From Alphaproteobacteria bacterium (lineage in GTDB: Bacteria > Pseudomonadota > Alphaproteobacteria > Rickettsiales > SXRF01): a stretch of 64,000 nt of DNA. The DNA is taken from NCBI GenBank assembly GCA_025362975.1, contig JANYES010000018.1, positions 147,309 to 211,308 of the forward strand, read 5' to 3'. The translations under genes were made by a program, and so were the position numbers. Of this stretch, positions 1 through 18,158 are shown in pieces; position 1 is the first letter of the stretch, and each line of letters opens with the position of its first letter. The notes under the pieces are model-generated. The model ran no database searches, was not told the DNA's origin, and saw only the letters and a program-made list of their open reading frames with translations.

Positions 1-1
1 A

Positions 2-376
2 AATAGCTTTGAAAAGCTCTGTTTACTTCTATGGAAACGGCTTGGTTATCATACAGAGTTTAATAGCCGTCGCCCACAGGGAGGCGTTGATATTGTTGCT
101 ATCAAAGGCAATGATGGCGTTGTTATGCAATGCAAAAGCTCATCTCGCCATAATGCACATCTTGGCCGTGAAGCCCTCAGTGATGTCATCATGGATTATA
201 ACGAATTTGCTCAGATGATACCTGACGTCTCGTTTAAGAAAATTGCTATCACTAACCAATATTTCAATGAAGAGGTGAAGCGTCGCGCTATCCTCCACGG
301 GGTGGAGCTTATAGAGAAATTGGAAATACTAGAGTTGTTGGAGAAACATCCAATACGATTGGTTGAACTAATATAG
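2..376 (+). CDS. Mrr-type PD-(D/E)xK restriction endonuclease, C-terminal part (5' end outside window)
   Basis: Frame 2 is open from the window edge. The translation FEKLCLLLWKRLGYHTEFNSRRPQGGVDIVAIKGNDGVVMQCKSSS shows the Mrr catalytic core (GVDIVA ... MQCK). ORF-track entry 125..376 is its tail. Confidence 0.7.
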   Translation, partial: NSFEKLCLLLWKRLGYHTEFNSRRPQGGVDIVAIKGNDGVVMQCKSSSRHNAHLGREALSDVIMDYNEFAQMIPDVSFKKIAITNQYFNEEVKRRAILHGVELIEKLEILELLEKHPIRLVELI

Positions 377-444
377 AAAAATTACCCGAATGTTCTCTCC
401 ATTATACCTAAGTTATAATTAGAGTGAAGTAGCGGGCAGGATAT

Positions 445-464
445 GTAATGTTGGCTAACATTAC
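445..464 (+). terminator. Possible terminator hairpin after the Mrr-like gene
   Basis: Perfect 8-bp stem GTAATGTT/AACATTAC with a GGCT loop, about 70 nt after the stop. It is nested in a longer imperfect stem (433-441 with 499-507). The U tract is weak. Confidence 0.3.
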
Positions 465-612
465 GTCTTATTCGCAAAAGATGCTCAACGATAAGTTGTC
501 CTGCCGCGCAAAAAACTTGTACTCTGCGAGGCATAGGCTTCCGCTAGACGTAAGATAAAAAATGACTAATTATGAAAGTGTCTTTGCGGCAATAACCAAT
601 TAAGGTAGATGC

Positions 613-1395
613 ATGACTAAGTTTTTCGCTCATCGCAGGAATTGGCCCGCCGATTTTCCTGATGTTTTGACCCACTCGGAGGTGGCGACCCGTAATAAGC
701 ATCCGGCTTATATCAGTGCCAAAGCCGGTGATTCTCAGGCTGCACTTATCCTTGTGCGGGATTTATTGAACGATAATGCCATAGAACTGTTGCGACAAAT
801 TATCGGGCAGCGCAACGTGATCCTTGCCGCTGTCACCGCAGTCGAGAAAACAGGTTTTAATGCCATTCCCGACGCTATGGCACATACCATCGGCGGCAAA
901 TTAGGGCTGCCTGTTGATACCGGCGAGCTACGGCAAACCAATGTGGTGGCACATACGCGTGCAACTGGCTGGCATCGGCTCGTTACGCCGCCTTTGTTCG
1001 GCGGCGAAGTTGAGAAAAGCCGCGATTATGTTCTGATTGACGACCATGTGGGGCTTGGCGGAACATTGGCTAATATGCGGGGTTATATAGAAGAAAAAGG
1101 CGGAAAAGTCGTTGCTATGACTACACTTACAGAATCCAGAGATGCCCGAAAAATAGCACTTCACGTAGAAACCCTAAATATGTTAAGATTAAAGCATGGA
1201 AAAGACCTTGAAAAATACTGGCAAGAAATCTTCGGTTATGGCCTCGACTGCCTCACCGAAATTGAAGCGGGTTATATCGCTCGTCAATCATCCTTTGACG
1301 CCATCACAAGATGCCTGGTTGAGGCAACAGAAGAAGCTAGTAGCGGTGGCTTATCAACAATCGCTATCGGGAGTATAAACCCTACCAGTGTGTAG
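613..1395 (+). CDS. Phosphoribosyltransferase-fold protein of unknown function
   Basis: 260-aa ORF. The C-terminal half carries a type I PRTase PRPP-loop-like signature, YVLIDDHVGLGGTLANM. I recognise no motif in the N-terminal ~120 aa. Confidence 0.6.
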   Translation: MTKFFAHRRNWPADFPDVLTHSEVATRNKHPAYISAKAGDSQAALILVRDLLNDNAIELLRQIIGQRNVILAAVTAVEKTGFNAIPDAMAHTIGGKLGLPVDTGELRQTNVVAHTRATGWHRLVTPPLFGGEVEKSRDYVLIDDHVGLGGTLANMRGYIEEKGGKVVAMTTLTESRDARKIALHVETLNMLRLKHGKDLEKYWQEIFGYGLDCLTEIEAGYIARQSSFDAITRCLVEATEEASSGGLSTIAIGSINPTSV

Positions 1396-1473
1396 TGGTT
1401 TCCGCTTGGCAAATGGCGTACTGTCTTTGGGCGTTGGCTTTAGTGATATGCGGTTGGATTCAACACGAATCAC

Positions 1474-1504
1474 GCCCCCGCAACCAACCACCAGAGCCAG
1501 TTTC
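1474..1504 (+). repeat. att-like direct repeat A (tRNA-fMet acceptor 3' arm + CCA + 15-20 nt)
   Basis: GCCCCCGCAACCAACCACCAGAGCCAGTTTC compares with GCCCCCGCAACCAACACCAGAGCCACTTTC at 14267-14296. The left flank (GGATTCAA) looks like a decayed T-arm. Confidence 0.75.
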
Positions 1505-1533
1505 AGGCTTTTCCCTTGAACCCTAAGTTTCTG

Positions 1534-1555
1534 CCGTTGCCGCACCATTGCCGCA
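1534..1555 (+). repeat. Tandem 11-bp repeats CCGTTGCCGCA / CCATTGCCGCA (candidate integrase arm-type sites)
   Basis: Read directly. The same 11-mer family recurs at 14093-14134 and, as CCGTTGCTACC x2, at 14325-14346. Confidence 0.6.
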
Positions 1556-3205
1556 TCATGCAGTCCCTGCACGCCCCGGGTCTTTTACCCAAATTGCTAT
1601 AGAACGCATAAATGCCCATACGTCATTATCGCCGGGCATAATATAATTTGCGTCGGCAGGGTCACTTCCTAGCCTATTAAGCATGGCAATCGTCCATTTT
1701 GTTTTGTCACCGGGAACGTTTAGGTTTTCCAGCCAATTTTCGACTTCACCGTTTCTAACAGCAAAAATGCCGTATTTATCCAATGAATCAAAAAACGTAG
1801 CTGCCCCTGCGAAATCATCACCCCCAAGAAGGTTGATGCCCCCGTCTGTTTTTATATTTCGTCCAGTTGCTTCAAATATTTTGGCAGTAGCTAACCGAGT
1901 AGTACGATAAGAATGATATTGATCTCTCGGAATTTGGGCTGCTTTCATCCATCCTGTCCAGTTTTTACCGAAATCGTTTACGAGATCAATGTCAGCGATT
2001 CCAACGGCAGGGACACCGAATTGCCTTAGAGGGCCAATAATATCTCGAATTGTTTGCTTGTTTTGTGCATTAACAAACAAAAGTGAAGGAGCATCAGGTT
2101 CTTGTTGAACGAGGCGATAATAAATTTCCGAATAAAAGGCACGGTCGTTATCCGACTCACAAACAACAACCCCGTCATGAAAAAGGGCTGAAATTACATT
2201 GGCACTTCTCATTAGCGGACGTCTAAAAAATTCACGAAGTTGGTCAGCATTGACCATTTTCCCTCGTGATCTTCCATTATTGTATTCAAGACGTATAACG
2301 CTTACATCCGCCGCTCCTTGCAAGCAGCCCATTAAAAAATCTGAACTGTGCGTTGATGCCATCAGACATCCACCACGTTCGGAGTTGAGTTTTGCAAGAT
2401 TTCTACCAAGTTTTCGAGCTAAGGGCGGATGCAAGAATGCCTCCGGTTCATCAATTAGAACAGTGTGGAACTTTGCTGATAATATGGCCGTAGTAATACC
2501 CGTAAATGCCTGAACACCATCACTAGCCTCTTTAATATGTAATGCCTGCCCATGATAAGCTCGCGCCGCAACGTTAAGACTTTGTTCGTCATCAAGTGGC
2601 GGCCTTTGCGAAAGTTTAATTCGAAGTTGGCCTAAGTTTGTAGGGTCGATAACATAATATAATCCGAAGGCGTCGAAGATTTGTTCACGTACTTTTTGGC
2701 GTAGAAAATCGTTTTTGAATAGATGGGTTAGCATGTTCGATGAAGCAGATTGTAAATCGCCCCCTGTTTGGTCGTTGGTCAGGTCGAATCGCGTGCGCCC
2801 ATCTAAGCGTATAAGTTCCCAGCGCAGCACTTGAGATACCCACCATGCCTTGTTTTGCCGTGTCCGAACCATCTCAAGCATAGTAGGATAGTGAACGCTA
2901 TGAGATCCCCCATGATAAGGACTCAGCGCACCTAAATTTAGATGTTCAAACTGTATATCGTTTGTTTGAAGTGGAATAAGCGAATCTATAAGGGTCTGCA
3001 CTTCAGTCAATTCTGGCCATTCAATCTCAAAATCTTGCAACACTTTTCCTGTTGTATAAGGGGTATTGGATGAGAATGCAGTTTGCAGTTCTTTTAGCAC
3101 AAGACTTTTCCCAGAATTGTTAGGTCCAACAAAAATTGTGACGCCCGCTGTGGTAATTTCTAGCGGCTCATTCTCGGTAAATCGAAGTGTGATAGATTTT
3201 AACAT
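1556..3205 (-). CDS. ABC-type ATPase fused to a TOPRIM/DUF4435-like domain (OLD-family or single-chain PARIS-like AriA-AriB)
   Basis: Walker A GPNNSGKS, Walker B HTVLIDEPEAFLHP and H-loop ASTHSSDF. The C-terminal region has VVVCESDNDRAFY ... GVPAVGIADIDLV (E ... DxD Toprim-like acidic motifs). Confidence 0.75.
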   Translation of the reverse strand: MLKSITLRFTENEPLEITTAGVTIFVGPNNSGKSLVLKELQTAFSSNTPYTTGKVLQDFEIEWPELTEVQTLIDSLIPLQTNDIQFEHLNLGALSPYHGGSHSVHYPTMLEMVRTRQNKAWWVSQVLRWELIRLDGRTRFDLTNDQTGGDLQSASSNMLTHLFKNDFLRQKVREQIFDAFGLYYVIDPTNLGQLRIKLSQRPPLDDEQSLNVAARAYHGQALHIKEASDGVQAFTGITTAILSAKFHTVLIDEPEAFLHPPLARKLGRNLAKLNSERGGCLMASTHSSDFLMGCLQGAADVSVIRLEYNNGRSRGKMVNADQLREFFRRPLMRSANVISALFHDGVVVCESDNDRAFYSEIYYRLVQQEPDAPSLLFVNAQNKQTIRDIIGPLRQFGVPAVGIADIDLVNDFGKNWTGWMKAAQIPRDQYHSYRTTRLATAKIFEATGRNIKTDGGINLLGGDDFAGAATFFDSLDKYGIFAVRNGEVENWLENLNVPGDKTKWTIAMLNRLGSDPADANYIMPGDNDVWAFMRSIAIWVKDPGRAGTA

Positions 3206-3313
3206 GGCTTTGACAGGATGCGGTTGATGATGACATGAACTGATGCAAACTTATTTTTTGCAACCTACTTTCTGGCTGATGGTTCAGGAAAAAATTCACT
3301 GGTATCCATGAAA

Positions 3314-5629
3314 TTATCCTGCCCGCTGGTCATACAGGTATTGCTGGAAGCCAGTAAATATATCGCGGATTGAGGCTATGCTCCCAAGCCGTTCCGTTGC
3401 ATCACTTACGGCCTGATATTTCAGTTCCAGTAGGCTCGGTAGCTTGGCTTGGTCAAGTTCCTTTTCGCCTTCCTTCACATATTGGGACAGCACGAAGTCC
3501 AAAAACTCGCGTTGCTTATCATCATAGTGGGAAAAAATATGATTTTTATGGGATGCCGCCCGCTCGCCCCGCGTGATGGGGCTTAGGGCAAAGGCGATAT
3601 ATGCCAGCACATCAAACAGGTCGCTTTTTTCTGCATCAACCATGCGCTTAATTTCAGCCAGTTGCTCTGCGCCGAATCCTTTATCTGATAGGCTATCAAG
3701 CAGGGCTTTGCGTGTGTCAGGTTTGCTCCATATCGCCCGCAGCTCATCTTCATCTTTGAACAATTCCGGCAATTGCCCAAAGAGGTTTTGCAGAAATTCT
3801 GCCGCTGAAAGCGGCCTGCCATCGGCTCCCCAGAAGGTCGTTGCCATCATGTGCTGAATTGTGCGCTCCTTCCCATCGGCGAGCTTGATCTTAATTCGCG
3901 CTTGGGGCGCAGGAGGCTCGGTAATAGTTGGCGTGGTAGGATTAGGGTTAGGAACGGGATTGGGTCTTGGGGTGGTCGGCGTCGGTTCTATCGGCTCGCC
4001 ATCCCACTCAGGGTCGTTGAAATGCTCATAGGCTTTCACAAAGTCGTAGATAGTGAAATAATCTTTTCCGTCAAACAAACGGGTTCCGCGCCCGATAATT
4101 TGCTTAAATTCAATCATGGAGTTCACAGGGCGCATCAACACGATATTGCGGACGTTGCGAGCATCCACCCCCGTCGAAAGCTTTTGCGATGTGGTCAGGA
4201 TGGTGGGGATGGTTTTCTCATTATCCTGAAAGGCTCGGAGATTCTGGTCGCCAAGCGCACCGTCCCGCGCCGTTACCCGTTCACAATAATGCGGGTCGGT
4301 GCTGGTCTTCATTTGGTTGATGAGGTCGCGCACGGCGGCGGCGTGGTCTTGCGTGGCGCAAAAAACCAACGTCTTTTCGCGCTGGTCGATAGTATCCATA
4401 AAGATTTTTACGCGGTATTTTTCCCGCTCTTTAATCTCAATAATGCGGTTAAAGTCCGCTTCGGTATATCGCCTGCCTGCTTCCGGCTGCCCTTCAATCA
4501 GTTCATCATCGGAGGTATAAACATAATCATCCATTGTGGTGGCGATTTGCTTCACCTTAAACGGTGTGAGGAATCCGTCATTGATGCCTTCTTTGAGGGA
4601 ATAGATATATACAGGCTCACCAAAATATTTATAGGTGTCCACATTGTCCCGGCGCTTGGGTGTAGCGGTCAGGCCAAGCTGTACGGCGGGCGAGAAATAG
4701 TCTAAAATTTTCCGCCAGTTGCCTTCGTCATTCGCCCCACCCCGGTGGCACTCGTCAATGATTATGAAATCAAAAAAATCCGCCGGGTAATCGGCAAAAT
4801 TGGGTGCGGGGTTGCCCTCGGCATCCGTGCCACTCATGAAGGTTTGGAATATGGTGAAAAAGATGCTGCCGTTTTTAGGAGCGCGTCCCGTCCTTCGGAT
4901 TTCGTCCGGCGCAATCCGCACCAGTGCATCTTCGGGGAATGCGGAAAAGGAATTATAGGCTTGGTCAGCGAGGATATTACGGTCAGCCAGAAACAGGATG
5001 CGCGGACGCCGTTCCGGTTCGCGGCTCAGGTTCCAGCGGCTCTGGTACAGTTTCCATGCCAGTTGGAAGGCGATGAAGGTTTTGCCTGTGCCGGTCGCTA
5101 GTGTCAGCAATATGCGGTTTCTTCCTTCCGCTATGGCTTCCAGCGTTTTGCTGATGGCATTGTCCTGATAATACCGCGCCTGCCATTGTCCACCCTTGTC
5201 TTCAAAGGGGATAGCGGCGAAGCGGTCACGCCATGCGTTTTCTTTGGTAAAGGTCAGGTTCCACAGTTCATCGGGTGATGGGTAGCCAGCGGCATCACCT
5301 TCCTTGCCCGTTTCCATGTCTATGAGATATATGCCATCGCCGTTGGTGGCATAGGCGAAGCGTATATTGAGTTTTTGCGCATATAGCTTGGCCTGTCCAA
5401 CCCCTTCGGTGGCGGGGAGTTCACGCTTTTTGGCTTCAATGACCGCGAGCTTGGTGTTGCGGTAGATCAGCACATAATCGGCAATCAGGGGTTTGCCGCG
5501 CTTGCCTGCGCCTTCTAACCGCCCGAGGGTGATGTGTTCCCTGCGCACGCGGCTGCCTTCCACTATGCCCCAGCCTGCGGCTTTTAGCGCGGGGTCAATT
5601 AGCTCGGCTCTGGTTTCGGCTTCGTTCAT
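3314..5629 (-). CDS. hsdR: Type I restriction enzyme R subunit
   Basis: N-terminal MNEAETRAELIDPALKAAGW (type I R nuclease region), helicase motif I LATGTGKTF and motif II IIIDECHRG. The start is moved to ATG 5629 (the ORF track extends to 5722). Confidence 0.95.
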   Translation of the reverse strand: MNEAETRAELIDPALKAAGWGIVEGSRVRREHITLGRLEGAGKRGKPLIADYVLIYRNTKLAVIEAKKRELPATEGVGQAKLYAQKLNIRFAYATNGDGIYLIDMETGKEGDAAGYPSPDELWNLTFTKENAWRDRFAAIPFEDKGGQWQARYYQDNAISKTLEAIAEGRNRILLTLATGTGKTFIAFQLAWKLYQSRWNLSREPERRPRILFLADRNILADQAYNSFSAFPEDALVRIAPDEIRRTGRAPKNGSIFFTIFQTFMSGTDAEGNPAPNFADYPADFFDFIIIDECHRGGANDEGNWRKILDYFSPAVQLGLTATPKRRDNVDTYKYFGEPVYIYSLKEGINDGFLTPFKVKQIATTMDDYVYTSDDELIEGQPEAGRRYTEADFNRIIEIKEREKYRVKIFMDTIDQREKTLVFCATQDHAAAVRDLINQMKTSTDPHYCERVTARDGALGDQNLRAFQDNEKTIPTILTTSQKLSTGVDARNVRNIVLMRPVNSMIEFKQIIGRGTRLFDGKDYFTIYDFVKAYEHFNDPEWDGEPIEPTPTTPRPNPVPNPNPTTPTITEPPAPQARIKIKLADGKERTIQHMMATTFWGADGRPLSAAEFLQNLFGQLPELFKDEDELRAIWSKPDTRKALLDSLSDKGFGAEQLAEIKRMVDAEKSDLFDVLAYIAFALSPITRGERAASHKNHIFSHYDDKQREFLDFVLSQYVKEGEKELDQAKLPSLLELKYQAVSDATERLGSIASIRDIFTGFQQYLYDQRAG

Positions 5630-5707
5630 AGTGAGACAAACTAGCTGTATAAGTGTTATCTGGCTAGAATATATATAGTTTTGTCCATTTACCCTCAGTC
5701 TGGGGGC

Positions 5708-5790
5708 TTTGCAATAAAGCACTTATTTGATTGAAATATATGTATTTTTTAAAATTATCCACAGTTTTGTGTTTTTGCAATAAAACACTT
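5708..5790 (-). promoter_or_regulatory. Duplicated 17-nt element upstream of hsdR, each copy carrying a TTGCAA -35-like hexamer
   Basis: TTTGCAATAAAGCACTT (5708-5724) and TTTGCAATAAAACACTT (5774-5790), 66 bp apart. On the minus strand each TTGCAA is followed 17 nt later by TAATTT or TAAATG. Confidence 0.35.
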
Positions 5791-5791
5791 T

Positions 5792-7207
5792 TTATGCCCA
5801 ATAAGGCAAATAACGGGCATAGCGGGTGGACATGGTTTCTGAGTCGTCTGCCTTAATAAGACCTATATCTTTGGTCGCGCTTATAACCTGCGAAATAGTG
5901 GACATGGAATCGGGAAGCCCAAACCGTTCACGAAGGGATTGGTTCGACATGCGCTTATTACTAACGTACAGCAAACAGCAATGTTGGTAGCAGGCACGGA
6001 CACGATCATTCTTGCTCATATCCGCAAAGTCTTGGTGTCCAAACATGATGGCGGTCGTCCGCAAGTCGCCCTCCCTGAAATCCGGCGCAGGAAGCTGATA
6101 ATGTTCTGCTGCCTCTACCACCTTATCGACACCACTGCCTTTTTCTTCACAGATACCAAGGCGGCGCATCAAATCAGCTAACCGTTCATTGCGGGAGCGA
6201 TACTCGTCGATGAAACGCTCCACTTTGATAGGCGGTAAGCCGGGATTGGAAATCTCTACCCTGTCATCATACATTTCGATCATGACGGATGCGCCGGACG
6301 TATTGAAATCCTGATGAACCAGCGCATTGGCAATTAACTCGCGCAGTGCCTGCTTGGGAAACATCTTCACGTCTTCGCGCAATGTTTGCTCAACGACATG
6401 ATTGCGCGGGGCGGCGGCATGGACGAAATCTACCAGTCCTTCAAATGCAACGGCATAGCCTCGCGTTCCCATAATGTCGTCGCGGGTTTTTAATTTATTC
6501 GTGCCTTCATAATGTACGAAGCGTGGGGCTTTGCGGGCAAGTGAAGCAGGGAAGGCATCCAGCTTTTTGGCAAGCAGGATGGCGGCAAGATTGGTGATTG
6601 TCCAGCCTGACTCCGAACGGTTTATTAAACCCTCCCCTTCTAACCGTTCCAAAACCGCGTCGCGGTTGGTGGGATAGGGAAGTTTCAGCAGGTCGAAGTA
6701 AGCCTGCGTATCGAGTAGGGCGATGACTTCATCCGGGCTGGCATTGGTTTTTGCTGGCTGGGAAAACCAATCCGGCTGGCCTTCGGCAAAAATGGCGCGA
6801 AGCTTATCCTGCGTCATGGCGATGGTACTTTCACCGGAGCGCATCAAGTACGCCCCTTCAAACGCGATGGCCTGACCTATGCCACGGGAAGGAACTTCAA
6901 ACACCAATACGCGCCCGTCTGGGTGTTGTAATGCCGTTGTCTCAACGCATATGTCGAGCGTCTGAACAATACGCAGTTTAATAGCGTTTAAATCGGCTTG
7001 AGAGGCATAGGCATGTGACCCGACAACCTGTCGTGGTCTGGTATCCGTGACCCCCAGCACAATAAACCCGCCGCCTTCGTTAGCAAGAGCGGCGCAGTAG
7101 CGTAGAAGCTTAGTGGAATCATACTGCTGTTTGGCTTCCTTAAATTCGAGCCGTTCCGTTTCGCTCGGAGCGTCAAGCCAGCGTTGCAGGGTTTCGAGTG
7201 TAATCAT
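5792..7207 (-). CDS. AlbA_2 (divergent AAA / DNA-binding) + HATPase_c_4-like protein embedded in the hsd operon
   Basis: N-terminus SETERLEFKEAKQQYDSTKLLRYCAALANEGGGFIVLGV (AlbA_2 pattern). The C-terminal ATPase-like and wHTH-like region overlaps the hsdS stop by 4 nt. Confidence 0.75.
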   Translation of the reverse strand: MITLETLQRWLDAPSETERLEFKEAKQQYDSTKLLRYCAALANEGGGFIVLGVTDTRPRQVVGSHAYASQADLNAIKLRIVQTLDICVETTALQHPDGRVLVFEVPSRGIGQAIAFEGAYLMRSGESTIAMTQDKLRAIFAEGQPDWFSQPAKTNASPDEVIALLDTQAYFDLLKLPYPTNRDAVLERLEGEGLINRSESGWTITNLAAILLAKKLDAFPASLARKAPRFVHYEGTNKLKTRDDIMGTRGYAVAFEGLVDFVHAAAPRNHVVEQTLREDVKMFPKQALRELIANALVHQDFNTSGASVMIEMYDDRVEISNPGLPPIKVERFIDEYRSRNERLADLMRRLGICEEKGSGVDKVVEAAEHYQLPAPDFREGDLRTTAIMFGHQDFADMSKNDRVRACYQHCCLLYVSNKRMSNQSLRERFGLPDSMSTISQVISATKDIGLIKADDSETMSTRYARYLPYWA

Positions 7208-8370
7208 GCGGCGAGCCTGTCGGTATGCAATTCCCCGGCAAAGGCTTTTTGCAGGATGGATTGTTTGAGTGCCGCGAGCTGTTCTAGCTTTTGCTGGTAG
7301 ATGGCTTCGAGGCGCTTGGTTTCGGTGGCGAGGGTATCGAGTTGAGCGACGATACGTTGCTGTTCGGAGAGTGGCGGTATTGGCACTGGAATAGAATTCA
7401 ACGATTTTTGGTTTAGCTTCGGCTGTGCCATACCGCTTACATAATCATCTAGCTTGATTGAATTAAGATAATACTCAACGAAATGCTGAGTTTCCATTTT
7501 ATCAAACTTCAGTACATGGGCGTGATTATTTACCCAGACTTTACCGCTTACCGAGAAGGCGATGGGATAGGTTCTTGCTAACAAATTCGCTCCATCTTCG
7601 GAAACAAGCAGCAAGTCATCATCGAATATGAACTCGCCAACATAATCGACGATACCTGATGCGCCATAATAAGGGTATTGGCCTTCTGCACGGTCTTTTT
7701 TGGTAATCGGTACGCGCTTACTATCAAGGTTCTCGCATATCGCGCCCAGCTTCTTCTCCACCCACCCGTCGCCTTTGGTGGTGAAGATGGATTGCAGGTG
7801 GCTTTCAAACAGCTCCCGGGCGTTTTGCAGGTTCTTTTTGGCGTTCTCGGTAGCCGTCGCAATCCCCGAAAATGCCTTATCCAACGCCGCTACAATCCGC
7901 TGTTGTTCGAGCAATGGAGGAACTGGGATTGTAACGCCGCGCACTAAATCACTATTAAGATTTCTAACAGTCGAACCTGCAGCTAATCGGTCGAATTGTT
8001 GGTACACGACATCCGAACCAAGCAGGTAATACATATAATCATTGTTTATTTGATTATTCTTCGGGTGCAACACTAACCACCCGTCATGGATGCAGCCTGA
8101 CGTTTTCATGATATAGGGACGACCAAAACTCATAGAGTTGGATAGAATAAAGTCACCCTCATGCACCAAACGCGACATCTTCATGCCTTCCGGCTTTATT
8201 TTTTCCTTGGTCTCATAAATGTATTTCGTACTGGCGGTAGCATCGCTAATTTTTATCCAGTTGATGCCATTTGATTCAGTTGTCATGTAATTCTTAATCG
8301 GTCGAGGGGAACCACCCCTAGCGATTTCGTAGAGTTCTTCTAATTTCTTCACCTGCCAGCCGTTTTTCAT
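7204..8370 (-). CDS. hsdS: Type I R-M specificity subunit
   Basis: Two target-recognition halves, each ending in the conserved helix PPLLEQQRIVAALD or PPLSEQQRIVAQLD. It has 4-nt overlaps with hsdM and the AlbA_2 gene. Confidence 0.9.
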   Translation of the reverse strand: MKNGWQVKKLEELYEIARGGSPRPIKNYMTTESNGINWIKISDATASTKYIYETKEKIKPEGMKMSRLVHEGDFILSNSMSFGRPYIMKTSGCIHDGWLVLHPKNNQINNDYMYYLLGSDVVYQQFDRLAAGSTVRNLNSDLVRGVTIPVPPLLEQQRIVAALDKAFSGIATATENAKKNLQNARELFESHLQSIFTTKGDGWVEKKLGAICENLDSKRVPITKKDRAEGQYPYYGASGIVDYVGEFIFDDDLLLVSEDGANLLARTYPIAFSVSGKVWVNNHAHVLKFDKMETQHFVEYYLNSIKLDDYVSGMAQPKLNQKSLNSIPVPIPPLSEQQRIVAQLDTLATETKRLEAIYQQKLEQLAALKQSILQKAFAGELHTDRLAA

Positions 8371-9818
8371 GCAATCACCCGGATAGTTTGTAAAATTTCG
8401 GCGGCTTCTGCATCAAGGGCAGCTATTTCATCTATAATTTCCTGCGGAGTTCGGATAGCAGTTACTTCGGCTTTATTAGGATTCTTTACCGAAAGGTCGT
8501 AGGTGGAGGTGGGAATGGTTTTAGCATCAACCGTCCATGAATTGTCGGAATCGCCGAAACTGGTTTGTAGCCTCACAAACTCGTTCAGATCATTGTCATT
8601 CAGTGGGTTGGTTTTCCCCATATTGCGGGCTGGCTTTAACTGATAATACCAAATTTTACGTGTTGCTGCGCCTTTTTCAAAGAATAGCACTACGGTCTTT
8701 ACGCCTGCACCGAGGAAGGTTCCGCCGGGGCAGTCCAGCACCGTGTGCAGGTCGCAGCTAGCGAGCAATTCTTTCCGCAGGGCAATGGAGGCATTATCGG
8801 TATTGCTTAAGAAGGTGTTTTTAATCACCACCGCAGCGCGGCCTCCGGCTTTCAGGCTTTTCATGAAATGCTGCAAGAACAGCATGGCGGTTTCGCCTGT
8901 TTTAATGGGGAAGTTTTGCTGCACTTCCACACGTTCCTTGCCGCCAAATGGGGGATTGGCAAGGATGATGTCGAAACGGTCTTTTTCCTGAATATCGGTG
9001 ATGTTTTCCGCCAGCGTATTGGTGTGCAGGATGTTTGGGGTTTCGATGCCATGCAAAATCATGTTCATGATGGCGATGACATAGGCGAGGCTTTTCTTTT
9101 CCTTGCCGTAGAATGTGCGTTGTTGCAGGGTTTTCAGGTCGCTGGTGGTCAGTTCCTTGCTGCGCAGGTAATCATAGGCTTCGCACAAAAAGCCTGCTGA
9201 ACCGACCGCGCCATCATAAATCCGTTCGCCGATTCTAGGCTTTATCACCTGAATCATGGCGCGAATGAGGGGGCGCGGGGTGTAATATTCACCGCCGTTG
9301 CGTCCTGCATTACCCATATTCTTGATTTTGGTTTCGTACAGGTGCGAAAGTTCGTGCTTTTCTTTCTGGGAACGGAAACGCAACTCATCCGCCCGCTCCA
9401 ATACGTCGCGCAGCGTATAGCCGCTTTGGATTTTATTGCGAATTTCGCTGAATATTTCACCGATTTTATATTCGATGGTATCCGGGCTATCCGCCTTTTG
9501 CTTAAACCCTTTCAGGTAGGGAAACAGCTTGGAATCCACAAACTCGCGCAGGTCATCGCCTGTGAGTGCTTTGTTATGGTCAAACTTGCCATCGGCTGTT
9601 TTGGGCGCTGCCCATGATTCCCAGCGGTAAGCCTTGTCGATAATATATTCATATTTTTTGCCAACCAGTTCGGCTTCATCGGCTTTCTGGCGCTCTAGGT
9701 CATCAAGGTATTTGAGAAACAGTATCCATGAAGTCTGCTCGGTATAGTCCAGCTCGCTGGTGCAACCGGCATCTTTCCACAGCACATCGTCGATATTCTT
9801 AAAAACCTGTTCAAACAT
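8367..9818 (-). CDS. hsdM: Type I R-M N6-adenine DNA methyltransferase subunit
   Basis: HsdM N-terminal domain (MFEQVFKNIDDVLWKDAG), SAM motif DGAVGSAGFL and catalytic NPPFG. The start is moved to ATG 9818. Confidence 0.95.
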   Translation of the reverse strand: MFEQVFKNIDDVLWKDAGCTSELDYTEQTSWILFLKYLDDLERQKADEAELVGKKYEYIIDKAYRWESWAAPKTADGKFDHNKALTGDDLREFVDSKLFPYLKGFKQKADSPDTIEYKIGEIFSEIRNKIQSGYTLRDVLERADELRFRSQKEKHELSHLYETKIKNMGNAGRNGGEYYTPRPLIRAMIQVIKPRIGERIYDGAVGSAGFLCEAYDYLRSKELTTSDLKTLQQRTFYGKEKKSLAYVIAIMNMILHGIETPNILHTNTLAENITDIQEKDRFDIILANPPFGGKERVEVQQNFPIKTGETAMLFLQHFMKSLKAGGRAAVVIKNTFLSNTDNASIALRKELLASCDLHTVLDCPGGTFLGAGVKTVVLFFEKGAATRKIWYYQLKPARNMGKTNPLNDNDLNEFVRLQTSFGDSDNSWTVDAKTIPTSTYDLSVKNPNKAEVTAIRTPQEIIDEIAALDAEAAEILQTIRVIA

Positions 9819-9878
9819 TGTCTTATCCTGCTGGTAACGTTTGCTATAATTTAACGCCTTGGACGGACAATGCAATTG

Positions 9879-10973
9879 TTATGAAGGCGTGCTCATCCCC
9901 AGATAATTCAGCACTTCCTTAATGGTTTCCGGCGTAATAGCTATATTCTTTCCATCCAATCCCTTAATTAGTTCACCCTGACGCTCGACGCTGACGTTTC
10001 CGTAGCTACGAAAGGTAGTCATCACACTTTCATGCCCGATGTTCTGGCTCCATGCTTTAAATTCTTCCGGGGTGCGGCAACGTTGCTCGCCGACCTGTAC
10101 AAGCGTTTTACGCAGCAGGTGGGGATGGAAATAAGGCAAGCCGACGCGTGCATAAGCCTCGCGCATGATTTTGCGCACCGTTCCTGCCGTTGACCAGCAA
10201 ACCCGCTCAAAACCAACGGGCGCGAAGCCTGCGGTATCTGTGACGGCAAGTTTAGTGCGGGGGAATAGCGGGTCTTCGTTGCCGTACAGCAGGTTTTTGC
10301 GCAGGTAAGCTACCCAGTCCTTCACGATGGTTTTTAGATCGTCGCCCAACGGTGTCCAGTAAGTGAAAATCTGTTTACTGGCTTTGGTTTTTACCTCGTT
10401 AGGGTTTTGATCGACGAACTCGCGGTCAGCGTCGATATGTTTCAGGCGAAGGGAGATCAGCGCACTGTCGCGCATCCCCGTGAGAATCGCCAGCGCGAAA
10501 AGCGCCCGGTCGCGGCGTTCGATGTCGGTATTGCTTGGCATGGCAAGGATGGCGTGGCGCACCTGCTCCAAGGTGGGGAAGGGCTTGATAGGTCGGGCGC
10601 GAGCGATACGGCCTTCCTTCTCGCCAAAATTAAGGTATTCGGTGTCGCTGACTTTGATTTTGCTGCGATAGCCCGGTTCGCGGCTTAACCAGATAAAAAA
10701 GTCCTTCAACGCGCCGAGGATGTGTTGGATGGTCGATTTACTGAGCGGTTGCTTGTCGCGTTGGGCGAGCAGACCAGCAAGGTGCTTTTTAAAGGCAACC
10801 GCTACCTCTTTATTGAAGTGACCGAAGCTGCGGAAATGAGTATATTCTTCATAGCGGTGGATTGCAGCGCCGAGCGCCAAAGTGGTTTGCTCAGACTTAC
10901 GCATGGCCTCTCGCTGGTAGTCGAGATAGCGGCGTTTAATACGTTCATTTTCGGCGTTGTATTTCACCATCAT
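9879..10973 (-). CDS. Tyrosine recombinase (integrase A)
   Basis: SAM-like N-domain and a catalytic region with LTGMRDSAL (R), HPHLLRKT (HxxR) and GHESVMTTFRSYGNV (H ... Y). Confidence 0.9.
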   Translation of the reverse strand: MMVKYNAENERIKRRYLDYQREAMRKSEQTTLALGAAIHRYEEYTHFRSFGHFNKEVAVAFKKHLAGLLAQRDKQPLSKSTIQHILGALKDFFIWLSREPGYRSKIKVSDTEYLNFGEKEGRIARARPIKPFPTLEQVRHAILAMPSNTDIERRDRALFALAILTGMRDSALISLRLKHIDADREFVDQNPNEVKTKASKQIFTYWTPLGDDLKTIVKDWVAYLRKNLLYGNEDPLFPRTKLAVTDTAGFAPVGFERVCWSTAGTVRKIMREAYARVGLPYFHPHLLRKTLVQVGEQRCRTPEEFKAWSQNIGHESVMTTFRSYGNVSVERQGELIKGLDGKNIAITPETIKEVLNYLGMSTPS

Positions 10974-11455
10974 TTTTCTCCTTGGTTGAAGTCACGCATA
11001 ACGAGGGAAGCGGAACTCTCCTTTATGTGTTCTCCATTGATCGTCTGAACCACGAACAGTTGCCTTATCTCCGGCAGTTTTTTGTCGCTGGTGATGCGCT
11101 GCATTTTTGTACCACAAGATACGCATAGTGCCTTCACCAACCAACCGCCTTTTTTAAGGCTGATTAAGTCCACCAGTCGCTCCCATGCCTGCCGGGGTTG
11201 GCGGCATTTGCAGCAATAAAATTCCCCCGGCTGGCAGGTGCTTTTTCGGCTCTTTTGGCGCTGGTCATGGAACTGGGTAAGGTCGGAGCCGTGAATCATC
11301 ATCGGGCGGTTGCCGTCGATGGTTTTCAAGCCCTGCTTTACCCAGTTCGAGACCGCGTTTTTGTGGACGCCGAAAAGTTCCGCGACTTCGTGGACATAAT
11401 ACGCATGGTGTTTGCGTATCAGGCGGGTGTTATAGGTGCGCCGCTTCGTCGGCAT
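10970..11455 (-). CDS. HTH + zinc-ribbon protein accompanying integrase A
   Basis: HTH YYVHEVAELFGVHKNAVSNWVKQG and Cys pairs CCKC ... CVSC. It overlaps the integrase start by 4 nt. The start is set at ATG 11455. Confidence 0.6.
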   Translation of the reverse strand: MPTKRRTYNTRLIRKHHAYYVHEVAELFGVHKNAVSNWVKQGLKTIDGNRPMMIHGSDLTQFHDQRQKSRKSTCQPGEFYCCKCRQPRQAWERLVDLISLKKGGWLVKALCVSCGTKMQRITSDKKLPEIRQLFVVQTINGEHIKESSASLVMRDFNQGEK

Positions 11456-11459
11456 GATT

Positions 11460-11672
11460 TTATACCGATTCCAAGCCGACGACGCGAGCAGCAACAAAAG
11501 CCTGCAAATCGGACAGGCGGTATTTTACCAAACGCCCCACCTTGACATAGGGAAGGGGGTAACGTTTTGTGCAAGCCCATACTTCCAACGTGCCTTTTGA
11601 CACGCCAAGAAATGCGGCGGCTTCGGCGCGGGTAAGCAAGGTATTTTCTGATTCGGTCATATCGTTCTCCAT
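11460..11672 (-). CDS. AlpA/excisionase-type HTH protein
   Basis: LLTRAEAAAFLGVSKGTLEVWACTKRYPLPYVKVGRLVKYRLSDL matches the AlpA/MerR-like excisionase pattern. Confidence 0.8.
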   Translation of the reverse strand: MENDMTESENTLLTRAEAAAFLGVSKGTLEVWACTKRYPLPYVKVGRLVKYRLSDLQAFVAARVVGLESV

Positions 11673-11769
11673 TGGGGGTTGTTAAAGTTCCCAATGCAGC
11701 GATAACCTAGATTAGCCCAGCAAGTCAGCCCTCTGGGGGTCTGAGGGTGGGGGTCTGAGAGTCGGAGGG

Positions 11770-12903
11770 TTAGAGGCTGTTGCCGCCTTTTCTTGCGATA
11801 GGACAACGGATAATGGTGTCCATAATTTCAGCGCGGGTTTTGCTGAAATCGGTAATGCCTCTTTTACCTGCTTCCTCTTGGAGCCATGCCACTACGTCTT
11901 TTTTCATAGGTGCAACGCTCGGGTTGGGGTTGGCAAGATCATATCCTTTCCAAAAGTGATTGATAGCATCGTACATTAACGCCATGTCCGGCGTGACATG
12001 CGCTGGCCTTTCAGGTTTAGATGGGGTGGAGTCGAGCATGGCTAGTTTTAGGGGTAACGTTTCTGCCCATGCGATTAATTCATCGGGTATAACTTTTAAG
12101 TGTAGGCTTTCTGTCACCATATCCGTCGGCGTTTTAATAAGCTTTAATTGACCGGCGGTATGGGCATCTAGTGCGTAGTCTAGTAACCTGCCAAAAATAT
12201 CATTTTCACCTTTATAGACAGTTGCATTCGGAGCTTTACGGTTGCGCCTGCCTATAAGATACAAAATGCCCGTATCAAGTTCCCAAAGTGGTTCCTTGCG
12301 TAAGGATGCGAAGTCGCCGGGGGTGATAAGGGGGTAAAAAAACGCTTCTCTTTCCTGCGCTGCTTTCCTGCTGTTGACCAAATAGATAACTGTATGCGCG
12401 GCATCGACGATTTGCTTTGATACCGGAAAACCTCGATGTGCAGCCCAGTTCAGAAACACATAAGAATCGACATCACCGACGCGATAATAAGGAAATTCAC
12501 CCCACCTGTCCGGCTGGGGAACATAGTAACTTAATATTCCGGCCTCGATGTCTTGCTGCGCTGCTTCGTAGCAGGCTTTGGCATCGGGCATATTTAAGAT
12601 AAATTCTTTGGCGGCAGCAAAGAGTGCATCATCATTCGGGAATTTTGCGTCAGTTACGCGTGTAGACTTTGAACCGTCGAACATTTCCAGCAAGGCTTGG
12701 TAATCATCAAAATGGAACCTGCCATGTGTAAGACCATGCCTGTCCCAAAATTCTTCTGTAAACAGGATTGATACCAACCATACGAGCGGTTCGTGTTCGT
12801 GGATAGATAATTTGGACTTATTGGCAGCAGGAATGGCTATATCTGGAGCAACAACGGTCATATTGAGTTCGCTAAATTGTTTAATCCAATTTAAGCCACC
12901 CAT
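11770..12903 (-). CDS. Hypothetical protein (377 aa; alternative start at MTVVAPD, 15 codons in)
   Basis: Long clean ORF co-directional with its neighbours. I recognise no motif. Confidence 0.55.
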   Translation of the reverse strand: MGGLNWIKQFSELNMTVVAPDIAIPAANKSKLSIHEHEPLVWLVSILFTEEFWDRHGLTHGRFHFDDYQALLEMFDGSKSTRVTDAKFPNDDALFAAAKEFILNMPDAKACYEAAQQDIEAGILSYYVPQPDRWGEFPYYRVGDVDSYVFLNWAAHRGFPVSKQIVDAAHTVIYLVNSRKAAQEREAFFYPLITPGDFASLRKEPLWELDTGILYLIGRRNRKAPNATVYKGENDIFGRLLDYALDAHTAGQLKLIKTPTDMVTESLHLKVIPDELIAWAETLPLKLAMLDSTPSKPERPAHVTPDMALMYDAINHFWKGYDLANPNPSVAPMKKDVVAWLQEEAGKRGITDFSKTRAEIMDTIIRCPIARKGGNSL

Positions 12904-12918
12904 AATTTAACGCAATCG

Positions 12919-14085
12919 TTAACTTTCTTCGCTGACCTTTATAGGCGCAGCCAGCGCAAAGATAACATCCGTTGCCCGCTGCACCGATTCTCGCACGGGG
13001 TCGAGGTTCAGGCGTGAATAGACCTGCGTGGCCTGCTGGGATTTATGTCCTAGGGATTTGCCGATGATTGAAAGGGAAGCCTCGGTAATGGCCTGATAGC
13101 TGCCTAAGGTACGGCGGATGTCATGGATGCGGAGGTCGGTGATGCCAGCGGCTTCCATGACCCTTGTCCATGCGCGTTTGGGGTCGGAATAATGGGTGCT
13201 GCCGTTCTTGCCGGGAAATACCCATCGACTGCCTGTTCCTTTACGGCGGCGTTGCAGGATTTCGATAGCGGTGGGAATAAGCGGTAATGTTACCGGGTCG
13301 CCGTTCTTGGTTTCGGCGATGCGCCATTCCGCCCGTTCCCAATTCACCTCGCTCCATTGCATAGCGAGGACGTTCGACTTACGCGCACCCGTCAGCAGCG
13401 ACATAAGAATATAATCACGGGCGGTTTCATTCTTTTCCTTGCCAAGCGCCTCATGGAAACGAATCAGCTCATCGGTTTGCATAAAACGGTCGCGGGAGCG
13501 TTCACGGAACTTTTTGATGCCGAGGGTAGGATTGCTACCTTCCCAGCCCCATTCGATGGCTTTATTAAAGATGGCGCGGATGCGTTCCAGCAGGCGGTTA
13601 GCTTGGTACTGTCCGTTTTCCCGCCCAACCTTTTCGTGGAGCTTGGCGACTTCCTGTTTGGTGATCGACGAAATCTTACGGGTGAACCAGTGCGGCAGGA
13701 ATTTGTTTACCTCGCGCTGGTCGTATATCCACGATTTCTTGTGCGGCTTGCTGTATCGCTCCATGTAATCATGGAACAGCTCGGCGAAGGTCGTTTCCTG
13801 CCGCAGTTTAGTCTTTTCCATGTTAGGGTTCGCGCCGCCTGCGATAGCTGCCTTGGTTTTCAGCGCCGCTACCCGTGCCTGTTCGACTGTCATATCCGGG
13901 AAAGCGCCGAGTTTCACGCGCTCATCACGCCCGTGGATGCGCTTCCTTACGAAGAAAGTTACTGCACTACCCGCTGTAATATAAAGGCTAAGACCTTTTT
14001 CTTTGGTGTCACGGTAGGACATCATGCCCTTGGCGGGGACGGGTAATTTTTGAATCTCTGATTTGGTAAAATTGAACGCTTTCAT
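12919..14085 (-). CDS. int: P4-type tyrosine integrase (DUF4102 N-terminus)
   Basis: N-terminus KGLSLYITAGSAVTFFVRKRIHGRDERVKLG. Catalytic LTGARKSNV (R), HDIRRT (HxxR), LGHKSQQATQVYSRL (H ... Y). The start is set at ATG 14085. Confidence 0.9.
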   Translation of the reverse strand: MKAFNFTKSEIQKLPVPAKGMMSYRDTKEKGLSLYITAGSAVTFFVRKRIHGRDERVKLGAFPDMTVEQARVAALKTKAAIAGGANPNMEKTKLRQETTFAELFHDYMERYSKPHKKSWIYDQREVNKFLPHWFTRKISSITKQEVAKLHEKVGRENGQYQANRLLERIRAIFNKAIEWGWEGSNPTLGIKKFRERSRDRFMQTDELIRFHEALGKEKNETARDYILMSLLTGARKSNVLAMQWSEVNWERAEWRIAETKNGDPVTLPLIPTAIEILQRRRKGTGSRWVFPGKNGSTHYSDPKRAWTRVMEAAGITDLRIHDIRRTLGSYQAITEASLSIIGKSLGHKSQQATQVYSRLNLDPVRESVQRATDVIFALAAPIKVSEES

Positions 14086-14092
14086 AAACTCC

Positions 14093-14134
14093 TCATTGCC
14101 GCACCGTTGCCGCAAATTGGAGTCTATTGCCGCA
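14093..14134 (+). repeat. Three 11-bp repeats TCATTGCCGCA / CCGTTGCCGCA / CTATTGCCGCA next to the integrase start
   Basis: Read directly. They belong to the same family as 1534-1555 at the other island end. Confidence 0.6.
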
Positions 14135-14234
14135 ATTTTCATCATGCAAGGTTAAATAATGAAATCGCTGAGAGTCGCAGTTTATAAGGGTTGGGATGGC
14201 TGTATTAAATTTCGCTACACATACGTTCCTGTGG

Positions 14235-14296
14235 CTCATAACCTGAAGGCCGCAGGTTCAAATCCTGCCCCCGCAACCAACACCAGAGCCACTTTC
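14235..14296 (+). other. 3' part of an initiator tRNA-Met gene (anticodon loop CTCATAA to CCA) plus trailer; contains att-like direct repeat B
   Basis: CTCATAACCTGAAGGCCGCAGGTTCAAATCCTGCCCCCGCAACCA parallels the anticodon loop to 3' end of E. coli tRNA-fMet. No matching 5' half (acceptor or D-arm) precedes it. Confidence 0.8.
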
Positions 14297-14324
14297 CGAA
14301 GATTGGCTAAATCCTCAAAAAACT

Positions 14325-14346
14325 CCGTTGCTACCCCGTTGCTACC
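14325..14346 (+). repeat. Perfect tandem 11-bp repeat CCGTTGCTACC x2
   Basis: Read directly. It sits at the same distance from DR-B as 1534-1555 does from DR-A, suggesting the homologous left end of an older island. Confidence 0.6.
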
Positions 14347-14402
14347 TGTCGGGCAAGTTTATAGTAGGCTTCTAATAACAATCCGTTATTGAATAAGCCT
14401 AT

Positions 14403-14852
14403 ATGTCCTATTTAATAAACTTTGATGATCCCCAGAACTTTGAACCAAGATATTTTGAAACTCTTGGCGCAGTAATTGGCATTTATTTTGTTTTTCTAAC
14501 AAAAACGAAAATTGCCTATCCATTTAAGCCTTCACGACTCATTTATGTAGGTATGAGTGAGCGCAGAACAAATAGTATCGGCACACGGTTAACGGATCAC
14601 TATATTGGTCGCTCAGGTAATAAGGGGTTACAAAACTATCGTAAGATTGAGCAACTCCAATTCACTTATTTGAACTTCCAAATTTTGGAAGGAATATGGC
14701 CTTCTAAAATAGAAGACCTTGAAAGCTATCTATTATTAGACTTCGTTGAACGGTTTGGTGTATATCCAATTTGTAATAACAAGAGTACTTACCCAGAATC
14801 TCTATTCAATTCTCAAAAGCCTTTAGAAATAGACTGGAATTATTTTGATTGA
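14403..14852 (+). CDS. GIY-YIG superfamily nuclease (149 aa)
   Basis: Motifs in order: GIYFVF, YVGMS, R-x3-H (TRLTDH), acidic LESYLLLDF and CNN. Confidence 0.7.
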   Translation: MSYLINFDDPQNFEPRYFETLGAVIGIYFVFLTKTKIAYPFKPSRLIYVGMSERRTNSIGTRLTDHYIGRSGNKGLQNYRKIEQLQFTYLNFQILEGIWPSKIEDLESYLLLDFVERFGVYPICNNKSTYPESLFNSQKPLEIDWNYFD

Positions 14853-15042
14853 GGCAATGATGGCAAAAACAGGCACAGAGATTTTACAAGATTTTATAAA
14901 AGCCCTCGATAATAACCCCGGCTGGGATGCTGACGTAGTGTCTGTAATACAAACTCTATGTAAAGAGGGCAGGCTAACTGATAAAGCAATTTCCAACGAA
15001 TTAGAAAACCTTCGCAAGCAAAAGCTCAATGAAAATCCGTAA
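14845..15042 (+). CDS. Small helical protein (65 aa; alternative ATG at 14857)
   Basis: It overlaps the upstream stop by 8 nt and the downstream start by 14 nt. I recognise no motif. Confidence 0.5.
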   Translation: MIEAMMAKTGTEILQDFIKALDNNPGWDADVVSVIQTLCKEGRLTDKAISNELENLRKQKLNENP

Positions 15043-17416: not shown

Positions 17417-17511
17417 TTTGTTTCTTCTTTCAAAACAATATGCTAATTGTATTATATAGTTATAATTTAAAAAATAAATACCGCGCAAGCAGTAGCTGGA
17501 GATTTTAAATA

Positions 17512-18141: not shown

Positions 18142-18158
18142 CTGTAAAGGAGCGTCCT

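Follow-up and report, generated by a model that had tools for sequence, protein, structure and literature searches.

The 64,000-nucleotide (nt) stretch of an Alphaproteobacteria bacterium analysed here (the window; contig JANYES010000018.1 of assembly GCA_025362975.1, forward-strand positions 147,309 to 211,308) carries, directly downstream of the restriction gene hsdR, a gene for a protein of 549 amino acids (aa) which, judged from its sequence, is an OLD-family ABC-ATPase with a Toprim nuclease domain. We read it as a stand-alone Class 1 OLD enzyme that works independently in abortive infection and is part of the cargo of an integrative island, and give this reading a probability of about 70%. 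In the open reading frame (ORF) listing of the window, the gene is a single intact minus-strand ORF with an ATG start, co-directional with hsdR as a first-pass annotation of this DNA had described it. The spacer between the OLD start and the hsdR stop measures 108 nt; the close adjacency given in that annotation therefore stands, and its figure of 109 bp is corrected by one base. The hsdR product has Pfam matches to ResIII, EcoEI_R_C and HSDR_N. An identical copy of the OLD protein is on record in NCBI assembly GCA_043761865.1 (contig JAYUNH010000020.1).

In the full-length protein, Pfam detects AAA_21 (5.6e-16) and AAA_15 (2.1e-14), both above their cut-offs, and the whole OLD-like_TOPRIM model PF20469 over aa 341-407, with 29 bits against a gathering score of 23.2. 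In PADLOC, Old ranks first (2.9e-22), ahead of AriA, NsnB, AriAB and ATPase-Toprim models; among these lesser matches AriA reaches 5.5e-18, AriAB 6.7e-14 and AbiLi 2.5e-10. The AriA and AriAB matches, together with the position next to a co-directional hsdR, would fit a fused PARIS (AriAB), in which the ATPase senses Ocr-like mimics that disable type I restriction-modification (R-M) and activates a DUF4435-type Toprim domain that cuts tRNA. Merged ariAB genes do exist, and PARIS senses Ocr (PMC11464382). However, the matches to the AriA hidden Markov model are partial and lie in the ATPase part (aa 169-290), and the AriAB match (aa 249-407) is weaker than that to Old. To discriminate an OLD Toprim from AriB/DUF4435, the C-terminal 230 residues were scanned alone, with Pfam E-values (E) up to 10. 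PF20469 was then the sole Pfam match (31 bits), and PADLOC returned Old (2.7e-9), GajA (2.3e-4) and nothing else; neither search gave a match to AriB, AriAB or DUF4435 (PF14491). Since the C-terminal domain alone gives none of them, the AriA and AriAB matches of the full-length protein come mainly from the generic ATPase. RloB (PF13707) had no Pfam match in the full protein or in the C-terminal domain. These same Pfam models were used by Burman et al. to tell OLD, PARIS and RloB systems apart (PMC11464382).

Next, the protein was compared with solved structures. A sequence search of the PDB gave one significant relative, the Thermus scotoductus Class 1 OLD (Ts OLD, 6p74), at E 8.5e-7 with the single protein as query and at 1.9e-10 with the family profile; no GajA, AriA or AriB chain appears with this profile at E<=0.1. 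A confident AlphaFold2 model was obtained from an alignment of 26 homologues (predicted local distance difference test 85.5, predicted TM-score 0.83). Its first Foldseek matches in the PDB are the retron-Eco8 OLD (2.2e-11), Ts OLD (8.2e-11) and GajA (4.4e-9), followed by Rad50/SMC/cohesin heads, and no PARIS chain is found among the top 50. When predicted structures of viral proteins were searched with Foldseek, the matches were 'ATP-dependent endonucleases' of giant viruses and ABC ATPases; as P2 Old is not among the matches listed, this search is uninformative for classification. NCBIfam has no family above its cut-off for this protein (retron_eff_Eco8, NF038234, scores 23.7 bits against a cut-off of 250), and a cluster look-up with the exact protein sequence returned no names.

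Two further results count against a fused PARIS: the C-terminus can be aligned with P2 Old through its end, and co-occurrence with type I R-M is missing in both directions (both described below). A fused-PARIS identity is thus not supported by the sequence comparisons, and we consider it very improbable. Of the pair 'OLD-like or fused PARIS-like' in the first-pass annotation, the first half holds and the second is not supported. Its C-terminal acidic motifs, likened there to the Toprim of both OLD nucleases and AriB, agree with the former (PF20469) and give no match to AriB/DUF4435; where it had left a choice between AAA_15/AAA_21 with DUF4435 and an OLD Toprim, Pfam finds the AAA families with PF20469, and the DUF4435 Toprim nuclease part of PARIS is absent.

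The Walker A, Walker B and H-loop motifs and the C-terminal acidic motifs listed in the first-pass annotation are all present in the translation (Table 1). Residues G27, K33, S34, D252, E253, H286, E350, D352, D354, D405 and D407 are invariant in the 26 homologues, as are G486, E487, E489 and W491. As these homologues are just 53-59% identical, the motifs are functional signatures rather than chance strings. All four elements of an ABC-type ATPase (Walker A, signature, Walker B and H-loop) are present and invariant. In the Toprim domain, a phmmer alignment to 6p74 pairs E350, D354, D405 and D407 with Ts OLD residues E377, D381, D431 and D433. According to Schiltz et al. (PMC7049728), metal A of Ts OLD is bound by E377, D431 and D433 and metal B by D381, S478 and E480, and mutation of both metal sites abolishes all cleavage. 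The metal B site is probably completed by E487 and E489, counterpart of Ts S478-x-E480, an assignment taken from their position after beta4 and not from superposition. In the AlphaFold2 model, helices 416-422, 427-447, 456-459 and 462-476 make up the insert that separates the DxD strand from the last Toprim strand. A second insertion, in the ATPase (about aa 56-210), is mixed alpha/beta in the model and occupies the site of the Ts OLD dimerization domain. An hhalign comparison of the 26-homologue profile with P2 Old gave a probability of 94.8% (E 5.4e-8, aa 247-540) and spans Walker B to the C-terminal residue in both proteins; GEVE pairs with GDIE, and GDKTKW with GKKQTEW. K501, in the C-terminal tail, might have a catalytic role. 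By these alignments, the protein belongs to the OLD family as a P2-Old-like member whose ATPase and two-metal nuclease site are both complete.

When 1.84 billion cluster representatives were searched with a profile, 1,585 clusters (50% identity) matched at E<=1e-30, nearly all of 545-585 aa and aligned end to end. Relatives occur in at least 529 species of 185,579 representative genomes, in Pseudomonadota, Bacteroidota, Cyanobacteria, Bacillota, Planctomycetota, Gemmatimonadota and other phyla; phages and plasmids contribute few records (3 and 8). Gene neighbourhoods were studied in 80 homologue loci, the best-scoring subset of the at least 529, with flanks of up to 10 kb on each side; gene calling simply took the longest ORF. 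Within three genes of OLD there are 301 ORFs (from 74 loci with the OLD gene called, L001 among them), and these form no similarity cluster larger than four. Among 81 immediate neighbours, no Pfam family is found in more than three, those that are shared being transposase or resolvase domains, and PADLOC matches are scattered singles, a minority. The 450-nt flanks are almost never conserved between homologue loci (3 and 6 of ~2,400 pairs), and a search of these flanks for small conserved ORFs found essentially none. No helicase, reverse-transcriptase or DUF4435/RloB partner recurs in the homologue loci.

This bears on whether a partner gene was overlooked and the protein belongs to Class 2 (Gabija GajA) or Class 3 (retron), as GajA and the retron-Eco8 OLD are among the best structural matches, both have weak profile matches, and one homologue has a UvrD-type helicase gene upstream. 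Here, however, the downstream gene is a convergent 260-aa phosphoribosyltransferase-like ORF in place of a helicase, and the upstream gene is hsdR in place of a reverse transcriptase or a retron non-coding RNA; neither the adjacent GajB helicase of Gabija, nor a retron reverse transcriptase with msr/msd RNA, nor a separate RloB (PF13707) partner is found. UvrD and RVT families are not listed among the 81 immediate neighbours, an Rfam scan of positions 1-16000 found no retron RNA, and the retron_eff_Eco8 score is far from its cut-off. An overlooked partner is therefore scarcely credible. As the OLD classes are defined by context (PMC7049728, PMC10568477, PMC12392090) and no partner gene recurs, the protein is a Class 1 OLD. 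With the OLD domains and the Class 1 context found, the PARIS nuclease domain missing and the Gabija, retron and RloAB/AbiL partners absent, it agrees with the OLD family and with Class 1 in every feature that sequence and context can show.

The helicase-bearing homologue is that of Acetobacter (locus L176, 5645-9653), where a 740-aa UvrD-type helicase is encoded directly upstream in the same direction, with housekeeping genes around. The pair has the reverse of the Gabija order, was seen once and may be a coincidence.

Next, the link to the type I R-M system was addressed in both directions. In the forward test, the 80 homologue loci were searched by phmmer and tblastn with HsdR, HsdM and HsdS of the island, the window's second hsdM fragment, and HsdR, HsdM and HsdS of E. 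coli EcoKI. Because these queries detect each other (1e-45 to 1e-48 for HsdM and HsdR, ~1e-9 for HsdS), sensitivity across type I families was adequate; type I R-M genes were found within 10 kb in 0 of the 80 loci. In the reverse test, 80 metagenomic loci with an HsdR 65-78% identical to that of the island, most of them with cognate hsdM and hsdS, were searched with flanks of up to 6 kb, and again none carried an OLD homologue. The proposal that the gene is a backup layer for type I R-M is thus not supported, as OLD homologues and such systems do not co-occur, in either direction, in the loci searched. The GC content of the OLD gene is 43.5%, compared to 52% for hsdR (a gap of 8.5 points) and 46-53% for the remaining island genes. 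This gap, and a closest homologue that lies in an element without R-M genes, argue for separate origins of OLD and hsdR. Since homologues elsewhere sit in other islands or among housekeeping genes, the OLD-hsdR adjacency is specific to this island.

Pairs of ATPase and Toprim-like genes embedded in type I R-M loci are known (the Rlo genes, AbiL), and the OLD gene might likewise serve the R-M system beside it as a functional accessory, sharing a transcript with hsdR and either guarding the restriction/RecBCD-AddAB axis or processing DNA after restriction. RloB and AbiL are both listed in PMC11464382. Such a role would agree with the short same-strand spacer, which has no terminator-like site and no clear promoter for OLD (no sigma-70-like promoter on the coding strand), with the shared 12.8-kb island, and with the response of P2 Old, whose C-terminal half is aligned here, to RecBCD inhibition (PMC11464382, PMC13261556). 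Promoter and terminator scans across the locus gave background levels. Co-transcription of hsdR and OLD is possible and is not itself evidence of functional coupling. The two counts of 0/80, the GC gap, the otherwise solitary family and the missing RloB match all speak against an accessory, which we hold to be rather improbable. One form of it, in which OLD is a tripwire co-transcribed with hsdR that fires once the type I enzyme, or the AddAB/RecBCD finishing restricted DNA, is put out of action by a phage, is quite improbable; this P2-Old-like guard, a second layer behind R-M, is suggested by the adjacency alone, and the pairing is unconserved either way. Most likely, the proximity to hsdR reflects modular packing of defence genes on one mobile island and not a dedicated partnership.

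For an independent OLD enzyme, the following course is the most likely by analogy with P2 Old, Ts OLD, Vc OLD and YbjD (PMC12445682, PMC7049728, PMC12392090, PMC13261556). The protein would form homo-oligomers through its ATPase insertion and would lie dormant until the cell is disturbed by an infecting phage. Binding or hydrolysis of ATP would then license the Toprim site to cut nucleic acid, which may be DNA, through nicking or exonuclease activity in the manner of Ts OLD and Vc OLD, or the anticodon stems of tRNA, which P2 Old attacks. The infection would be stopped at the cost of the cell, with the protein acting alone. Class 1 OLDs that defend alone are P2 Old (PMC12445682), Vc OLD (PMC12392090) and YbjD (PMC13261556). 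P2 Old is triggered by RecBCD inhibition and acts on the anticodon stem of tRNA-Thr (PMC12445682). Based on the P2-like C-terminal architecture, a P2-like mode, with a tRNA target and a perturbed host function being sensed, is a reasonable first hypothesis at this low identity.

Several points weigh against a solitary defence nuclease. Trigger, substrate and abortive phenotype are borrowed from relatives that are ~14-23% identical, and no experimental study of this OLD subfamily was found in the literature. YbjD produces its phenotype without need of the Toprim domain (PMC13261556), so a nuclease-centred mechanism is not universal in Class 1 OLDs. The neighbourhood census covers the best-scoring 80 of at least 529 loci, with flanks to 10 kb and longest-ORF gene calls. 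As the spacer lacks a terminator-like site, co-expression with R-M stays conceivable. Several homologues are surrounded by housekeeping genes and have neither a mobile nor a defence context; given these settings and the few PADLOC-matching neighbours, a defence role of the whole family is not established.

The last point also feeds a reading outside defence, namely a housekeeping or genome-maintenance ATPase-nuclease for repair, replication restart or the cell cycle. The position of some homologues between metabolic or ribosomal genes, the high conservation of length and sequence across many phyla and the rarity in phage and plasmid records are in line with it, and the archaeal OLD-family protein Cran1, for which such a role has been proposed, is a precedent (PMC12796447). 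Here, however, the gene is cargo of an integrative island within a dense defence hot spot, and its closest relatives are on mobile elements: the closest homologue (59% identity) adjoins an integrase, its element also encoding a relaxase and a coupling protein but no R-M genes, and further homologues lie in islands bearing an integrase or resolvase. The patchy spread, with at least 529 of 185,579 species, also fits an accessory gene. A housekeeping function is accordingly an unlikely explanation of this gene.

As listed in Table 1, the island is ~12.8 kb long, bears an integrase and lies at a tRNA-Met site, with OLD as its terminal cargo gene. Its ends are marked by an imperfect direct repeat of ~35 nt, GCCCCCGCAACCAAC(C)ACCAGAGCCA(G/C)TTTC, at ~1473-1506 and ~14262-14296; for a 24-nt pattern from within the left copy (1476-1499), the number of chance occurrences expected is 0. 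The tRNA-Met fragment at the right copy is 86-90% identical to annotated E. coli tRNA-Met genes, and ARAGORN found no complete tRNA there. The motif TTGCCGCA is not enriched over the window as a whole (8 found, 5.2 expected), and it is meaningful in its clustering at both island ends alone. From this mirrored position, the clusters are probably integrase arm-type sites. The earlier remark that the OLD stop abuts island-end repeats is borne out by the direct repeats, the tRNA-Met fragment and the mirrored clusters. Defence genes do continue past the left boundary, with a type I Zorya system just beyond; the doubt that this raises about an island end was rejected on the same three features. The locus has no megablast match in 5,426 complete E. 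coli genomes, and the window is therefore not enterobacterial. For GluQRS, a housekeeping gene of the window, the best named relatives come from MAGs of uncultured 'Rickettsiales bacterium' and from Microvirga, which puts the host among poorly sampled, uncultured Alphaproteobacteria.

Table 1. Positions in the window of the OLD gene, its domains and motifs, and the island that carries it
Feature	Position (nt)	Strand	Basis
OLD-family ATP-dependent nuclease gene, 549 aa, Class 1 by context	1556..3205 (incl. stop codon)	-	ORF, Pfam, PADLOC
ABC-type ATPase region, aa 1-320	2246..3205	-	AAA_21/AAA_15 matches aa 1-319, invariant columns
Walker A GPNNSGKS, aa 27-34	3104-3127	-	translation
ABC signature SDGVQ, aa 228-232	2510-2524	-	translation
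Walker B/D-loop VLIDEPEAFLHP, aa 249-260 (incl. VLIDEPE)	2426-2461	-	translation
H-loop STHS, aa 284-287	2345-2356	-	translation
Toprim core, aa 341-407	1985..2185	-	PF20469 end to end, profile positions 1-67 of 67
Acidic motif VVVCESDNDRAFY, aa 346-358 (contains ESDND with E350, D354)		-	translation
GIADIDLV motif, aa 402-409 (contains ADID with D405xD407)		-	translation
Helical insert of ~70 aa, aa 410-478, DxD strand to last Toprim strand	1772..1978	-	AlphaFold2 model
Last Toprim strand and GEVENW, aa 479-492	1730..1771	-	strand 480-482 in model; invariant residues
C-terminal helical tail, aa 493-549, invariant G499, K501, T502, W504	1559..1729	-	alignment, P2 Old
hsdR-OLD spacer, 108 nt	3206..3313	-	promoter/terminator scans
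Left copy of direct repeat (att core), holds last 13 nt of tRNA-Met-like gene	1473..1506	+	repeat search, alignment
Two TTGCCGCA repeats, 11 nt apart, ending one base before OLD stop codon (1556-1558)	1537..1555	+	
Remaining island cargo (context, outside OLD system)	3314..14145	-	Pfam, gene calls
hsdR	3314-5722	-	
SLFN_AlbA_2/HATPase_c_4 gene, 471 aa	5792-7207	-	
hsdS	7204-8370	-	
hsdM	8367-9875	-	
Integrase-like gene (second)	9879-10973	-	
HTH_17 gene	10970-11497	-	
377-aa gene, no assigned function	11770-12903	-	
Tyrosine integrase	12919-14145	-	
Three TTGCCGCA repeats inside other island end, overlapping tyrosine-integrase start	14096..14134	+	
tRNA-Met 3' fragment, 51 nt (14233-14283), then rest of right repeat copy	14233..14296	+	alignment

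The hot spot around the island comprises Zorya, type I R-M, a Lamassu-like ATPase and type II R-M. On the left, window positions 2-376 (+) are the C-terminus (Mrr_cat) of a 1270-aa SNF2-Mrr protein (ZorD) that extends leftward. It is preceded by EH_Signature, MotB_plug and ZorA-like genes, giving a complete type I zorABCD (locus L001, 12830-21050) that abuts the island. In the spacer between zorD and the 260-aa ORF, a sub-threshold Rfam match to traJ-II RNA (434-515, +; 35.3 bits against 40, E 0.002) is probably due to chance.

The 260-aa ORF itself (613-1395, +), convergent with OLD, has a motif like those that bind phosphoribosyl pyrophosphate, VLIDDHVGLGGTL, and resembles adenine phosphoribosyltransferases weakly (aa 129-176, E 0.005); neither Pfam nor PADLOC assigns it to a family. 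With relatives of ~255 aa it makes up a conserved family, found on mobile elements (behind an HTH_17 gene, close to ParA and ArdC) or beside purEK. As a conserved partner of OLD it was rejected, with no match in the 80 homologue loci; nor does it resemble the 273-aa gene that follows OLD in the locus of the closest OLD homologue. A different OLD-family gene of 627 aa (AAA_15/AAA_21 with OLD-like_TOPRIM; locus L170, 762-2645) lies on a small mobile element, ~4 kb from the nearest relative of this ORF.

Within the R-M genes of the island, the SLFN_AlbA_2 + HATPase_c_4 gene sits between hsdS and hsdR and has weak PADLOC matches to Argonaute-associated PNTD modules. A homologue was found in 5 of the 80 loci with a close hsdR, in 3 of them between hsdS and hsdR; the gap is otherwise variable. 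Around the spacer between this gene and hsdR are two 49-nt direct repeats, 73% identical (5679-5727 and 5745-5793), which may be a duplicated regulatory sequence. The annotated hsdR start is at 5629 (771-aa version).

Just outside the tRNA-Met repeat, a block of low GC content (34-40%; 14403-19319, +) starts with a 149-aa ORF without assigned function. It encodes a 795-aa SMC_N/LmuB-like ATPase (PADLOC LmuB 4.9e-24), possibly of a Lamassu-like system, and an Eco29kI-family restriction endonuclease (1e-70) with a C5 cytosine methyltransferase. It is followed by a truncated hsdM (19500-20552, -; 350 aa, HsdM_N and part of N6_Mtase), whose protein is 90.8% identical to that of the island hsdM. 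This looks like the remnant of a second, related type I R-M locus or of recombination at the hot spot. Further along, a second large tyrosine integrase (50881-52530, -; 549 aa, DUF6538 and Phage_integrase) lies ~6 kb from a tRNA-Phe gene (58811-58886, +), and the two may mark another integrated element.

To our knowledge, P2 Old, Vc OLD, Ts OLD and YbjD are the only Class 1 OLDs studied so far; they differ in substrate and in ATP use, and we know of no less understood branch of this nuclease family, which also supplies Gabija, some retrons and PARIS. The present analysis defines a large and uniform P2-Old-like subfamily of ~550 aa, with ~1,585 clusters, many phyla and no partner gene. Its member on a tRNA-Met-associated island in a multi-system hot spot is a convenient candidate for finding out what solitary OLDs sense and cut. 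The main value of the result is negative, as the picture of a fused PARIS guarding type I R-M does not hold.

Compared to known systems, the protein shares with P2 Old (UniProt P13520) a single polypeptide of ABC ATPase and OLD Toprim without a partner gene. Both have a spacing of 80-86 aa from the DxD to G-[ED]-[IV]-E, an insert of equal length and a GxKxxxW tail in the hhalign alignment. In contrast, identity is 22.6% over aa 104-412, the N-terminal ATPase half is left unaligned by hhalign, and P2 Old is a 586-aa prophage product, compared to 549 aa and cargo of an alphaproteobacterial chromosomal island here. Of the proteins with a solved structure, Ts OLD is closest in sequence, and it is one of the top Foldseek matches, yet it is ~14% identical in the structural alignment, lacks the long helical insert (45 aa from D433 to S478, against 80 aa here) and has a helical dimerization domain where the model has a mixed alpha/beta insertion.

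With PARIS (Class 4, including merged AriAB), the protein has in common an AAA_15/AAA_21 ABC ATPase and a Toprim domain, and its AriA and AriAB matches come mainly from the ATPase part (the AriA-type ATPase of PARIS is characterised by coiled-coil insertions, IS1 and IS2, that form hexamers); the nuclease domain is nevertheless of the OLD type (PF20469) and not DUF4435 (PF14491), and no PARIS chain was retrieved by structure or profile. GajA of Gabija (Class 2) and the retron-Eco8 OLD (Class 3) have the same overall fold and are top Foldseek matches, whereas no GajB/UvrD helicase, reverse transcriptase or non-coding RNA partner is present here or recurs in the homologue loci. RloA/RloB and AbiLi/AbiLii have a related AAA_15/21 ATPase (AbiLi match 2.5e-10), and the location of Rlo genes beside type I R-M genes resembles the site of the OLD gene; unlike these pairs, this is a single fused protein with an OLD-type Toprim and without PF13707, and its R-M association is unconserved.

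Vc OLD and E. coli YbjD/OldB are, like the gene described here, solitary bacterial old genes, with phage phenotypes. YbjD shows no significant profile similarity to the protein (hhalign probability 2.7%), and neither the DNA nickase activity of Vc OLD nor the Toprim-independent phenotype of YbjD can be transferred to it. Vc OLD, compared by description and not by sequence, lies on a small integrase-bearing defence element beside another system, DarTG (PMC12392090), and is a direct precedent for a solitary OLD placed next to another system on a small defence element.

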